From positions 12,162 through 76,161 of the forward strand of contig CAJQPN010000044.1 of the NCBI GenBank assembly GCA_905480195.1: a stretch of 64,000 nucleotides of DNA, read 5' to 3'. This DNA is from an uncultured Acidimicrobiales bacterium. GTDB taxonomy: Bacteria > Actinomycetota > Acidimicrobiia > Acidimicrobiales > Aldehydirespiratoraceae. A program made the translations under genes and the position numbers. The notes beneath the pieces were generated by a model, which did not search any database, was not told where the DNA came from, and worked only from the letters and a program-made list of their open reading frames with translations. Below, piece by piece: positions 11,440 to 33,155 of the stretch (positions are counted from its first letter, which is position 1; the number at the start of each line of letters is the position of its first letter).

Positions 11440-12228
11440 ATGAGCGAACCCATCCTCGAAGCCGATGGCATCACCCTTCGATTCGGTGGCGTCACCGCGA
11501 TCCGTGATGTGAGTTTCCACGTCAACGAAGGTGAGCTGTTCTCGATCATCGGTCCGAACGGCGCAGGGAAGACCTCGATCTTCAACACCATCTCGCAGGT
11601 ATATCGCCCGCAGGAGGGCGACATCCGCTGGAAGGGTGCGTCAATCATGGGGCATCGGCCCGACTTTGTCGCTGAGCTTGGCATTGCCCGCACGTTCCAA
11701 AACATCGAGCTGTTCCCCCAGATGACGGTGATCGAGAACCTGCTTCTCGGGCGCCACATCCGCATGAAGCAGAACTGGTTCCAGGGGATGCTCTGGTTCG
11801 GTGTCGCCAAGGCTGAGGAGATGGAGAACCGTCGTCAGGTTGAGGACATCATCGACTTCCTCGAAATTGAGGAGTGGCGCAACCACCCGGTCGCCTTGCT
11901 GCCGTACGGCATCCAGAAACTGGTTGAGCTTGGTCGGGCGTTGGCGATGGATCCGGAGTTGCTTCTGCTCGACGAGCCAGTTGCAGGTATGAACCTCGAA
12001 GAGACCGAGGACATGGCCCGCTTCATCCTCGACATCCGGCGCGAGCTCGGCATCTCGATGGTCATGGTCGAACACGACATGGGGCTCGTCATGGATATCG
12101 CCGACCGCATCATGGTGCTCGACTTCGGCGAGAAGATCAGCGAAGGCACACCCGAAGAGGTCCAGAAAGATCCGAACGTGATCGCGGCCTACCTCGGATC
12201 GAGTGACCTCCACGTCGCTGCCGAGTGA
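11440..12228 (+). CDS. ABC ATP-binding protein (LivG-like)
   Basis: GPNGAGKT, RTFQN, LPYG, LDEPVAG, VEHDM, AYLG. Confidence 0.93.
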   Translation: MSEPILEADGITLRFGGVTAIRDVSFHVNEGELFSIIGPNGAGKTSIFNTISQVYRPQEGDIRWKGASIMGHRPDFVAELGIARTFQNIELFPQMTVIENLLLGRHIRMKQNWFQGMLWFGVAKAEEMENRRQVEDIIDFLEIEEWRNHPVALLPYGIQKLVELGRALAMDPELLLLDEPVAGMNLEETEDMARFILDIRRELGISMVMVEHDMGLVMDIADRIMVLDFGEKISEGTPEEVQKDPNVIAAYLGSSDLHVAAE

Positions 12229-29619: not shown

Positions 29620-30411
29620 ATGAGCGACGTACTTATTTCGGTTACCGATGCCGGCGACGGGGTTCGTTACCTGACCCTCGACCGGCCCGAGAAGAAGAAT
29701 GCCATCTCCACGGCGATGCGCAGCCGCCTGCTTGCTGCACTCCAATCCCACGACCATGATCCAGATGTACGGGTGACGATTATCCGTGGTGCGGGTGACT
29801 GCTTTTCAGCGGGCTACGACCTGTCAGAGGGACTCATGGACGATCCGCCCTACCACTCTGCACCTGGTGATGGGGCGTGGACTCGCCAGGCCAGCGACGG
29901 CTGGATCTCGATTTGGGACCTCGCCAAGCCCGTGATCGCGCAGGTTCACGGGTATGCGATGGCCGGTGCGACCGAGCTTGCGACCGCATGTGATCTGATC
30001 TACGTCGCCGACGACGCAGTCATCTCGTATCCGGTCGTCCGCCTCGCCTCGCCCCCCGACTGGCAGTACCACGAGCCGCTGCTTGGTATGCGCCATGCAA
30101 TGGAGCTGCTGCTGACCGGCGACGGTATCGACGGCCATGAGGCGACGCGGATCGGCTGGGCCAACCGCGCGTACCCGGCCGAGGTGCTCGAAGCGTCGGT
30201 GCGTGAGATCGCCGGGCGCATCGCCGGAGTTGCCACCGACCTCACCCAGATCAAGAAGCGAATGGTCCACCGCCAGTTCGATGTGCGGGGTGGCCGTGCC
30301 GCAATCCGGGCCGGGCAAGAGTTCCAGGCCCTCGCCGGGCATCAGGACTCAGTTCAGGGGTTCCGAGCTGATCCGCTCGGTGCCATGAAGCGCGAAAACC
30401 GAAGTGGCTAA
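29620..30411 (+). CDS. enoyl-CoA hydratase/isomerase family protein
   Basis: LDRPEKKNA, FSAGYDL, KPVIAQVHGYAMAGA; ATG after GGAGG. Confidence 0.9.
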   Translation: MSDVLISVTDAGDGVRYLTLDRPEKKNAISTAMRSRLLAALQSHDHDPDVRVTIIRGAGDCFSAGYDLSEGLMDDPPYHSAPGDGAWTRQASDGWISIWDLAKPVIAQVHGYAMAGATELATACDLIYVADDAVISYPVVRLASPPDWQYHEPLLGMRHAMELLLTGDGIDGHEATRIGWANRAYPAEVLEASVREIAGRIAGVATDLTQIKKRMVHRQFDVRGGRAAIRAGQEFQALAGHQDSVQGFRADPLGAMKRENRSG

Positions 30412-30520: not shown

Positions 30521-30549
30521 TTGCGCTTTGGCTGCACGCAAGGCAATGT
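30521..30549 (+). promoter_or_regulatory. candidate housekeeping-sigma promoter for the structured RNA
   Basis: TTGCGC-N17-CAATGT. Confidence 0.4.
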
Positions 30550-30555
30550 AGAGAC

Positions 30556-30800
30556 ACGAAACAACATGACACGACCTCAGTCGCGAAGGGCTGATCATTC
30601 GTCCCGTCATTCCTTCGCCCGGGCTGATCGCCCACGGGCCGTGACCTCTCCTCACCCCCCGGGAGAGGTCGGTCTCGATCAGCCCGATTCCGCGCCGGCT
30701 TGTTCATCGAGCCGGTACCCACACCCCCCGATGTGAGTGACGGGGTTCGGCCTCGGTTCGAGTGTCCCTCGTCGTAGGGGCACTCGAGCTGGGGCCTTCC
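30556..30800 (+). ncRNA. candidate structured ncRNA with two C6 loops (6C/Ms1-like)
   Basis: Nested helices 30601-12/30735-46, 30620-30/30676-86, 30643-51/30662-70 (loop TCACCCCCCG), 30695-701/30709-15, second C6 loop at 30724-29, 21-bp hairpin 30749-96; G.U pairs form only on the + strand. Confidence 0.7.
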
Positions 30801-31058
30801 CACTGCGGACGCAACGAGCCCACCCGCATCAGTAGCAGTGACCGAGAATGGAGCGTGGCTCTCGAGCACGCCGTGGACGGTGTCCGTGACCGTTGACCCA
30901 GTCGGAAAACCGACTACGACGATGGACGCGCCGTCGGCGCTCACGGCATCGCGGGCGCTGCTGAATTCACTTGCGATCCGGCTGGTTGCGGCCACGTTCC
31001 AACGGGTGGCCCCGATGAGTGGTTTCGCCACTCGGATCGTACGGGGCATGATCGGCGC

Positions 31059-33155
31059 ATGCCGAACGAGCCTGCGTCCGCTTCTTACCCTCGTCGCAAC
31101 GCCGTCACCCGTCGGTTCACACTGGGGGCGCCTCGCGATCTCCGGGTCGGGTCCGACGGCGCCCGGATTGCGTTCCTGCGTTCGAGTGGCCCAGAAGATC
31201 CCGTCAACTCCTTATGGGTCTTCGACGTAGAAACGCGAGAAGAACGCCTGGTTGCAGACCCGGCCTCCCTGGGCGCACAAGACGATGACCTGCCGCTCGA
31301 AGAGCGCGCACGCCGAGAGCGCGCTCGTGAGAGTGGCGGTGGGATCGTCGCGTACGACGCTGATGCGGAACTCACCCATGCCTGTTTCGCACTCGGCGGT
31401 CAGATCGGACGGGCCGACCTGCGGGCCGGGTCGGCGGAACTGCTGGTCACCGCTCCAGGAGGTTTCGATCCTCGGCTTTCCGCCGACGGGTCGGCGATCG
31501 CCTACGTCTGCGCAGATGCTCTGCGAGTCGTTGATGCCGACAGCGACCGTGAGGTGATCGGCGAATCGGGCGAAACCATCTCGTGGGGAGCAGCGGAGTT
31601 CATCGCCGGTGAAGAAATGGGGCGGACTCGCGGGTTCTGGTGGGCGCCCGACTCGCAGCGGCTCTTGGTCGAGCGTGTCGATGTTGCCCCGATCGACACC
31701 TGGCACGTCGCCGCACCGATCACCCCGTGGCAAGCGCCGCAGGCGATCCGGTACCCCGGCGCAGGGACGCCCAATGCCGAGGTTGCGTTGGCGGTGGTCG
31801 GACTGGACGGCAGCCGGCTCGATGTGGGCTGGAACGGTTTGGGCGAATGGGAGTATCTCGCCGACGCGTCATGGACGGGTGAGGGGCTGATCCTCACCGT
31901 CCAGACCCGCGATCAGCGAACCCTCGCCGTGCTCGATGTCGATCCTGACACTGGTGAGTGCGCCGAGCGGTACCGGATCGTCGACGACCACTGGGTCGAG
32001 CTCATTTCGGGTACGCCGCGTTTGCATGACGGCAAGCTCATCACCGTCGAGGACCGCGGAACTGCCCGTCGGCTCTGTGTCGACGGCAAGTCGGTCACCG
32101 GCGACGAATGGCAGGTGCGATCGGTGGTCGATATCGACGACGAGCGCCTGGTGATCCGTGCGTCGACCGACCCAACCACCGTCGATTTGGTCTCGGTCGG
32201 CTGGGACGGAGGCACGAAGGTGGAGACGAAGGGCGGCGGCGTGAACGGGGTCGCCATCGGCGGTGACGTGTGGGCGCTCACTCGGTCCGACATGGACGGC
32301 CGAGTGATTGGCGACATCATGATTGGCTCAGAGACGGTTGGAACGATCACCGACACGAGCGAGCGACCGGCAGGCGATCTTCATGTCACGTTCCACACCG
32401 TCGCTGATCGGGAGTTGAGGACTGCACTCGTGTTGCCGAGTAGATACGACGGGGTCGCGCCGTTGCCCGTACTGATGGATCCGTACGGTGGTCCCCACGC
32501 CCAACGAGTGCAGCGGGCCGCCGGATTGTTCCATGCGCCGCAGTGGTTCGCTGATCAGGGGTTCGCCGTGATCATCACCGACGGTCGCGGGACGCCCGGA
32601 CGGGGACCGGTCTTCGAGCGAGAAGTCAGCGGCGACCTCGCCGCACCCGTGCTCGACGATCAGGTCGCCGCCCTCCGGGCGCTGGCAGATGACCATCCAT
32701 TCCTCGACCTCGGTCGTGTGGCGATACGCGGCTGGTCGTTCGGCGGCTATCTCGCTGCGCTTGCCGTGCTGCGGCGACCCGATGTTTTCCACGCGGCCGT
32801 CGCCGGCGCACCGGTCACCGACTGGCGGCTGTACGACACCCATTACACGGAGCGTTACCTCGGCAATCCGAACGAGGAGCCGGAGAACTATGAGCGGACC
32901 GATCTGTGCGCAGACGTCGCCCGACTCGGAGAGCGCACGCTGCCACCGCTGATGCTGATCCACGGCCTCGCCGACGACAATGTCGTCGCTGCGCACACGC
33001 TGCAGTTGAGTCGCGCTCTGCTCGAGGCCGGTAAGCCCCACACGGTGCTGCCCCTGTCTGGGGTGACCCATATGACGCCGCAGGAGGAGGTTGCTGAAAA
33101 CCTGCTGTTGGTGCAACTTGTGTTCCTCCGCAAGGCTCTCGGGATCGAGACCTGA
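31059..33155 (+). CDS. S9 family peptidase (dipeptidyl peptidase IV-like)
   Basis: DPP-IV N-terminal propeller (EEMGRTRGFWWAPD), YGGPHAQ, GWSFGG, HGLADDNV, H near C-terminus. Confidence 0.93.
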   Translation: MPNEPASASYPRRNAVTRRFTLGAPRDLRVGSDGARIAFLRSSGPEDPVNSLWVFDVETREERLVADPASLGAQDDDLPLEERARRERARESGGGIVAYDADAELTHACFALGGQIGRADLRAGSAELLVTAPGGFDPRLSADGSAIAYVCADALRVVDADSDREVIGESGETISWGAAEFIAGEEMGRTRGFWWAPDSQRLLVERVDVAPIDTWHVAAPITPWQAPQAIRYPGAGTPNAEVALAVVGLDGSRLDVGWNGLGEWEYLADASWTGEGLILTVQTRDQRTLAVLDVDPDTGECAERYRIVDDHWVELISGTPRLHDGKLITVEDRGTARRLCVDGKSVTGDEWQVRSVVDIDDERLVIRASTDPTTVDLVSVGWDGGTKVETKGGGVNGVAIGGDVWALTRSDMDGRVIGDIMIGSETVGTITDTSERPAGDLHVTFHTVADRELRTALVLPSRYDGVAPLPVLMDPYGGPHAQRVQRAAGLFHAPQWFADQGFAVIITDGRGTPGRGPVFEREVSGDLAAPVLDDQVAALRALADDHPFLDLGRVAIRGWSFGGYLAALAVLRRPDVFHAAVAGAPVTDWRLYDTHYTERYLGNPNEEPENYERTDLCADVARLGERTLPPLMLIHGLADDNVVAAHTLQLSRALLEAGKPHTVLPLSGVTHMTPQEEVAENLLLVQLVFLRKALGIET

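Follow-up and report, generated by a model that had tools for sequence, protein, structure and literature searches.

A narrowly distributed structured RNA of probable type VII secretion operon origin in a clade of Acidimicrobiales

The locus and its features

The window analysed here is a 64,000 nt stretch (positions 12,162 to 76,161, forward strand) of contig CAJQPN010000044.1 from an uncultured Acidimicrobiales bacterium of the Aldehydirespiratoraceae (GenBank GCA_905480195.1; genome G000). Between an enoyl-CoA hydratase (ECH) gene and an S9 peptidase gene lies a non-coding element with a promoter-like hexamer pair, an A-rich leader and a row of hairpins displaying two runs of six cytosines (Table 1). 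Two relatives, G011 and G012, hold full-length homologues and are referred to, together with G000, as the carriers. The start of the RNA at about 30556 is a predicted one. Identity among carriers is just 44-48% in the A-rich leader (30556..30582), and A-rich motifs of a similar kind are seen by eye 3' of the -10 box in type VII secretion operons.

Table 1. Features of the element and its surroundings, in window coordinates
Feature	Position	Strand	Basis or remark
Promoter-like -35/-10 pair (TTGCGC, 17 nt, CAATGT)	30521..30549	+	Homologous to the promoter before the WXG100 gene in relatives
A-rich 5' leader, predicted start ~30556	30556..30582	+	Resembles the 5' UTR of the WXG100 gene; by eye
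P1, conserved 5' hairpin	30583..30618	+	7/7 pairs in all three carriers
Non-coding segment derived from an EccC/EssC-like FHA-FtsK gene (about codons 40-110)	30600..30800	+	blastn, tblastn, family searches
P2, long helix with C-rich loop 1 (CCCCCC, 30655-60) at its tip	30620..30686	+	Loop unpaired at least 0.94
P3 hairpin; Gly-Ser-x-x-Glu-Pro codons in coding homologues of the genus	30694..30716	+	7-9/9 pairs in those homologues
C-rich loop 2 (CCCCCC, 30724-29; former Thr-Pro-Pro codons) on a short stem	30722..30735	+	3' arm of stem within the 8-nt insertion
Terminal hairpin without U-tract, predicted 3' end	30749..30796	+	Covariation inside intact eccC/essC-like genes
ECH gene, upstream synteny anchor, outside the RNA	29620..30411	+	Pfam ECH_1
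Gfo/Idh/MocA oxidoreductase remnant, convergent, internally deleted	30840..31049	-	Intact in G011 and G012
S9 peptidase gene, flank	31059..33155	+	Pfam

The convergent Gfo/Idh/MocA gene encodes 330 aa in loci of the G011 type and survives in the window as a 70-codon remnant (30840-31049, - strand). Right behind the terminal hairpin G011 has several copies of a tandem repeat of ~16 nt (L010, about 1400-1490), of which fewer copies are present in L034.

Other readings of the segment were considered and rejected. A small peptide finds no support among relatives: the 56-codon window ORF that opens at 30567 has no counterpart in G011 or G012 and the element is non-coding, which answers the preliminary description's concern that an overlapping ORF might be conserved at the protein level. 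The 213-aa minus-strand ORF, for which Pfam gives no match, is the frame of the oxidoreductase remnant continued across the RNA. A leader for the S9 peptidase gene is at odds with G011 and G012, in which an intact opposite-strand gene sits between the two.

Fold of the RNA

On the + strand the 245 nt of the window element fold with a minimum free energy of -133.1 kcal/mol (z -7.72; none of 200 shuffles as good), compared with z -2.49 (2/200 shuffles) on the - strand, in agreement with the preliminary assignment to the + strand; the homologues in G011 and G012 fold comparably (z -6.9 and -7.5). The consensus is a row of hairpins, comprising P1, a long P2 with C-loop 1, P3, C-loop 2 and the terminal hairpin. 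Every feature that had been described from the window alone is present at the positions first given, among them the CCCCCC runs at 30655-60 and 30724-29, the TTGCGC-N17-CAATGT pair upstream (30521-49), an 11-bp helix (30620-30/30676-86), a 9-bp helix beneath loop 1, the 7-bp hairpin (30694-30716) and the terminal hairpin of 21 pairs (30749-96). A proposed 12-bp closing helix (30601-12/30735-46) can form in the window sequence, with a pair probability of ~0.79, and only there; its rival is the 5' hairpin P1 (30583-89/30612-18), which dominates in G011 and G012 at a probability of ~0.99. P1 is also paired 7/7 in the coding homologue of a further relative, G006, with different bases.

Loop 1 is unpaired at a probability of at least 0.94 in all three carriers; loop 2 is open less consistently, being paired in part in G012. 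Neither C-loop differs among the three carriers, and the two lie 69 nt apart, with the 3' arm of P2 and the whole of P3 between them.

Relationship to 6C, Ms1 and 6S RNAs

The preliminary description likened the element to the 6C and Ms1 RNAs. Rfam models applied to the whole window at their gathering thresholds gave 0 matches, and E-value mode gave only chance-level matches to mir-9242, Scr3202 and 6C. The last of these (RF01066) scored 17.7 bits (E 9.2), where the cut-off is 47, and covered only 30617-78, which does not include both loops; the cut-off is a strict one, as a C. glutamicum control scored below it. Ms1 (RF02566) has no match at the element, its best match in the genome being one of 15 bits elsewhere, and 6S (RF00013) likewise has no model match, nor does the element form a long hairpin with a central bubble. 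No 6C or 6S match was found by Rfam covariance models in the genome, which is 87% complete.

Architecture and neighbourhood agree with these scores. In the available part of PMC5014011, 6C is defined as an adjacent pair of stem-loops spanning ~80 nt. The element does have two loops of at least six cytosines (loop 2 only partly open in G012), but these are 69 nt apart with P3 intervening rather than on adjacent stem-loops within ~80 nt. Ms1, according to the part of PMC9130861 available to us, is marked by a neighbouring HAD-IB hydrolase gene. The element is not beside such a gene: the three HAD-IB loci of the genome are on contigs C47, C20 and C44, the last ~30 kb away. With 17.7 of the 47 bits for 6C, no match for Ms1 or 6S, and the Ms1 neighbourhood on another contig, kinship with 6C or Ms1 is not supported; the Rfam comparison places the element in no known family, as the preliminary description had allowed. 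A 6C-like way of working, reached by convergence, is plausible.

The genome's own Ms1 or 6C may be sought on contig C47, where a 730-nt gap between a Tad/CpaF-type ATPase gene and a HAD-IB hydrolase gene (L181:761-1492) has the Ms1 neighbourhood. Within this gap 521 nt fold at z -3.6 on the + strand; it has a 103-codon ORF and no Rfam match.

Distribution and copy number

Only G011 and G012, 2 of the 15 congeners, have full-length homologues, which are 80% identical, and carriers make up 3/107 family genomes when G000 is included. They hold the element always at the same locus, behind the same ECH gene. A pattern scan added three metagenome contigs with near-identical copies of the two types, also placed behind that ECH gene; such scans were narrow in both genome and metagenome contigs, the former giving just the two known relatives. 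Among 150 order-level genomes there was no convincing copy, the best that covariance model R1 returned being two matches of ~23 bits in a search that scored 18-25 candidates per genome and that distant copies could escape. With a second model, R2, the strong matches among the 107 family genomes are either ATPase 5' ends or the three carriers themselves.

Several candidates fell away on inspection. Four new strong R2 matches and that in G126 are coding; the match in G117 is a decayed, promoterless fragment of the ATPase gene; repeated weak matches in genus g10 consist of a tRNA 3' end plus a hairpin; and two further ones, in G031 and G087, show no type VII genes. Short blastn matches in G002, G003, G005, G009, G010 and the window's own genome are same-sense coding matches within an unrelated gene, which we take to be sufB, and are not homologues. 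The G117 fragment (L173:1290-1715) is an independent, promoterless, decaying piece of the same ATPase gene among mobile-looking genes.

In its own genome the element is single-copy by both blastn and covariance model, and the absence of dispersed copies disposes of the possibility, raised in the preliminary description, of a MITE or REP element. G008, a member of the same clade that is 98% complete, lacks the element, which is therefore dispensable.

Descent from a type VII secretion operon

The position behind the ECH gene is occupied differently among relatives: among 30 ECH loci, an FtsK gene starts within 1.5 kb at 17, the RNA is found at 3, and 10 show neither. The operon in question consists of a WXG100 gene followed by a long FHA-FtsK gene (EccC/EssC-like, type VII secretion), both assigned by Pfam/NCBIfam at scores below the curated NCBIfam cut-offs. 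In gene order the RNA takes the exact position of the operon.

Its sequence points to the same source. Against the ftsK gene of G006 the element aligns by blastn at 68.7% identity over 134 nt (E 1e-12 in a database of 10 regions), with a local score of 96 as against a maximum of 51 in 30 shuffles. Alignments to the ATPase genes of G013 and G015 are weaker; the alignment with the ATPase gene runs on through the terminal hairpin, and tblastn finds pieces of the element that resemble residues 44-56 and 70-84 of the ATPase. The upstream pattern TTGC..-17-CA...T recurs at the corresponding position in G011 and G012 and precedes the WXG100 gene in ten operon-bearing genomes from three genera (G004, G013, G015, G019, G023, G103, G105, G106, G107, G108); this loose pattern has no clear equivalent in genus g2. 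A consensus promoter scanner made no call at 30521-49; the support for a promoter is comparative. The promoter region as a whole is 57-59% identical, which is no more conserved than neutral sites; its hexamers and their spacing are kept.

WXG100 and this EccC/EssC-like FtsK gene were not found in G000, G011, G012 or G008 by searches for which G006 served as positive control; the carrier genomes are 87-95% complete, and the locus itself is contiguous. These four genomes form one clade (100/100) in a two-protein tree of 30 genomes, in which operon-bearing genomes fall both inside and outside the genus and the deeper genus forks are unresolved. Two signs by which an sRNA is traced to a protein gene are seen here: relatives have, at this locus, a gene to whose coding strand the element is homologous, and in the carriers that parent gene is lost and the parental promoter retained. 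On this comparison of sequences the element is almost certainly the promoter and leader of the type VII operon joined to a piece of its ATPase gene. The simplest history would involve a single deletion of ~450 nt, together with loss of the remaining ATPase gene, in the ancestor of the clade; the remnant would later have been lost in G008.

In this family the type VII locus seems to be a minimal one, with one WXG100 gene and one FHA-FtsK gene of 1340-1400 aa (L072-L078), and a rough ORF listing of those regions gave no further type VII component. In L073, L074 and L075 an A-rich motif, in direct and inverted copies, flanks the -35/-10 pair of the WXG100 promoter; the copies are a possible operator, partly kept in the leader of the RNA. 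G122 (10% contamination) has two near-identical ECH-WXG100-ATPase loci (C1:1615331 and C7:68211).

Inherited hairpins and lineage-specific insertions

Coding homologues allow the age of individual structures to be judged. We collected 31, one of them truncated. In 24 of the 30 intact genes, 14 of which come from one genus, the 54 nt of the terminal hairpin fold better than synonymous resamples (median z -2.8); outside that genus 10/16 do so, and control segments beat their resamples in 9/31 and 1/31. In an alignment of 16 sequences, kin among them not being independent, 7/17 pairs of this hairpin change on both sides, amounting to 22 cells as against 9.1 in shuffles (0/500 as high). Paired codons change their amino acids jointly (Val/Leu, Thr/Val, Ser/Leu, Ile/Ile). 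By this comparison of coding sequences the terminal hairpin is older than the RNA, and within the ATPase frame it is a candidate 3' end of the WXG100 transcript. The hairpin sits at about codons 85-105 of the eccC/essC-like genes (L072-L078, L114-L133) in genera g1, g2 and g9, and weakly in g5.

P3 is ancestral within the genus, with 7-9/9 pairs in G004, G006, G013 and G015, and the coding sequence of G006 is predicted to form the entire layout of P1, P2, P3, C-linker and terminal hairpin. The RNA folds at z of about -7, as against -1.7 to -6.1 for coding homologues.

What sets the carriers apart is a pair of insertions. The first (9-10 nt) is seen as an anchor distance of 75-76 nt in carriers as against 66 nt in four coding homologues, and apparently lies in the G-rich 3' arm of P2 at ~30661-72, the exact site depending on the alignment. 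For the window, the 109 nt first measured include a 33-nt offset of the leading anchor, which leaves 76 nt. The second (8 nt) lengthens another anchor distance to 32 nt in 3/3 carriers from 24 nt in 4/4 coding homologues, and the stem of loop 2 has 3/3 pairs in carriers and 0/3 in coding homologues. Both insertions are G-rich, and each follows a C-run and provides a stem arm beneath it. The C-runs themselves are largely former Thr/Pro codons, the second being an unchanged Thr-Pro-Pro tract of the ATPase linker; since they are largely ancestral codons, their presence alone means little.

Loss of coding capacity and selection

The element no longer evolves as coding sequence. Substitutions between the window and G012 are distributed as 10/16/10 over the ancestral codon positions, as against 12/6/21 in a coding pair, and carriers have stops and frameshifts, single-base indels differing from one carrier to another. 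The insertions of 9-10 nt and 8 nt are shared by carriers relative to the four coding homologues; because both lineages have these frame-breaking insertions, neither copy was coding during the time in which synonymous sites diverged to 61% identity.

Against this neutral background (985/1614 fourfold sites identical in eight neighbouring genes, 61%) the core of the element is 139/167 identical (83%; Fisher p 4e-9) and the terminal hairpin 39/52 (75%; Fisher p 0.04), and the flanks are at 38-49%. Pairs are kept at 50/53 and 53/54, as against ~41-42 expected under random placement of substitutions, in a test that is partly circular, as the helices were chosen from the same sequences. In helix P2a the sequence itself, and not just the pairing, is invariant. 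Covariation among the three carrier copies is not significant (3/74 pairs, a level reached in 46/500 shuffles), and just two independent lineages carry the RNA; of the covariation that the preliminary description proposed to look for, that within the RNA is thus lacking among carriers and that of the terminal hairpin is found in the coding homologues. We consider it highly probable that the element is a constrained non-coding RNA and functions as such. The earlier proposal of a lineage-specific RNA is upheld in that the element is single-copy, structured, non-coding, on the + strand and under purifying selection, with its promoter position kept.

Expression and candidate targets

Public sequencing runs provide a weak hint of transcription. 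Twelve runs were listed, having been selected by matching a stretch of the window, and eight were compared as contigs only, which carry no information on strand or ends. A contig lies on the element in 5/7 runs labelled RNA. Those in X2 (30564-30750) and X7 (30589-30756), from the same study, do not reach beyond the element, which in X7 and X8 holds the sole long matching contig in 6 kb. Contigs of X1, X3 and X8 extend past the predicted ends, those of X1 and X3 linking the element to the end of the ECH gene or to the gap upstream. No contig from X4, X5 or X6 falls on the element, an absence that is uninformative.

Near 2564 starts taken from rough gene calling, sequences complementary to the loops show no enrichment (1 as against 1.9 expected, and 17 as against 15.2), and no partner gene was found at the locus.

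Proposed mechanism and alternatives

We propose, at about even chances, that the element is a stand-alone, trans-acting sRNA of ~245 nt whose C-loops pair with G-rich ribosome-binding regions, with mRNA repression as the predicted outcome. In intact operons the terminal hairpin would end or protect a short WXG100 transcript of ~700 nt, leaving WXG100 in excess of the ATPase. The deletion of ~450 nt would have taken out the WXG100 frame along with the first codons of the ATPase gene, bringing promoter, tail and 3' hairpin together in a single unit; the old promoter would now drive a ~245 nt RNA to the inherited 3' hairpin. The insertions may have been kept because they display the C-runs as seeds. 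As far as the available part of PMC6486639 goes, the loops of M. tuberculosis 6C pair with G-rich sites, and the C-loops of the element would seed on G-rich ribosome-binding regions in the same manner.

More tentatively, and at somewhat less than even chances, a fuller account can be given. A structured module hidden in the eccC/essC frame throughout the family, where it would constrain even the choice of amino acids, would mark the end of the short esx transcript; the clade would have deleted the secretion genes, kept promoter and module, and turned Thr/Pro codons into C-seeds displayed on hairpins, converging on the design of 6C from a starting point unrelated to it.

The same origin and a stand-alone RNA are compatible with another role, that of a protein decoy or scaffold for a factor that once recognised the structured, C-rich tail of the esx-eccC mRNA, for example Rho, a nuclease or a KH-type protein. 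The complete hairpin layout already predicted in the G006 coding sequence, the sequence invariance of P2a, which suits recognition by a protein, and the absence of mRNA targets in the scan are all in its favour. We think it unlikely, given that both lineage-specific insertions concern the display of C-runs and that the locus has no partner gene.

Rather unlikely, too, is a purely cis-acting element without any trans role, which would provide the luciferase-like/ECH transcript upstream and the converging oxidoreductase gene with a 3' end, a terminator or a barrier to nucleases. The terminal hairpin does lie between converging genes, its ancestral role was probably that of a 3' end, judging from the coding homologues, and the bridging contigs of X1 and X3 would fit. 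However, the 170-nt core (83%) is more conserved than the terminal hairpin (75%), promoter hexamers and spacing have been kept, and in ten relatives the ECH gene is followed by neither the operon nor the element.

It is very improbable that the element is a divergent Ms1/6S-type polymerase-binding RNA or a true 6C member. Its length of a few hundred nt and two six-C loops would suit such an RNA, as would the lack of any 6C, 6S or above-cut-off Ms1 match elsewhere in the genome (87% complete) and the strictness of a 6C cut-off that the C. glutamicum control does not reach; against this stand Rfam scores far below cut-off, a branched fold in place of a rod with a bubble, the wrong neighbourhood, and an origin, within one small clade, from a protein gene. 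Finally, a neutral pseudogene scrap with a fold inherited from the mRNA, for which the good folds of coding homologues (z -1.7 to -6.1) and the presence in 3/107 family genomes only might speak, is largely refuted and hardly credible, for the core stayed at 83% and its pairs were kept while synonymous sites fell to 61%.

Parallels in known systems

The birth of sRNAs is poorly documented, with intermediates rarely traceable, and the worked examples in the source portions consulted are enterobacterial. The present locus shows three states within one genus (intact operon, RNA only, empty site), and as the coding relative G006 has the same layout, the steps from codons to RNA module can be read and tested. 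The hairpin inside type VII ATPase genes may set the ratio of WXG100 to ATPase. In high-GC bacteria, loops rich in C can go back to fossil proline codons, and finding them does not prove kinship with 6C. In searches of open-access article listings, neither this RNA nor any sRNA derived from a type VII gene or from Acidimicrobiia came up.

With Ms1/scr3559 the element shares an intergenic position, a length of a few hundred nt and an own promoter, here predicted (PMC9130861, in the part available); unlike Ms1 it has no model match, no HAD-IB neighbour and no long rod with a central bubble. With 6C (M. tuberculosis B11) it shares two six-cytosine loops in a high-GC actinobacterium and, here as a prediction, chaperone-free pairing with G-rich 5' UTRs (PMC6486639 and PMC5014011, each in part), but it is a multi-hairpin RNA of 245 nt at another locus, with a separate and recent origin from codons.

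For the operon, the closest parallel is S. aureus esxA, which according to the accessible part of PMC4285178 is followed by a terminator and expressed in excess of the ess cluster. In both cases the WXG100 gene comes first in the type VII cluster and is followed by a hairpin, with partial read-through and expression in excess in S. aureus; the terminator is intergenic there, whereas here the hairpin, putatively the end of a transcript, falls within the ATPase frame, ~300 nt from its start.

For the RNA, the parallel is with sRNAs derived from protein genes. The consulted part of PMC8825220, whose table of 62 sRNAs covers Enterobacterales, names OxyS (from the 3' end of a peroxidase mRNA), StyR-3 (from a gene 5' end) and EcsR2 and IsrK (from phage genes), and has OxyS and StyR-3 replacing protein genes and keeping their regulation. 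The element is a real, previously undescribed and very narrowly distributed structured RNA, a variant of this known class. As in OxyS-type sRNAs, an RNA replaces a protein gene at the same locus, with homology to the coding strand and retention of the parental promoter (PMC8825220, same part). It differs from them in that its parent is a two-gene secretion operon, which contributed the promoter and leader of gene 1 and an internal 5' piece of gene 2, in that the retained piece ends at a hairpin conserved in the intact frame, and in its occurrence in Acidimicrobiales with a function that is predicted.
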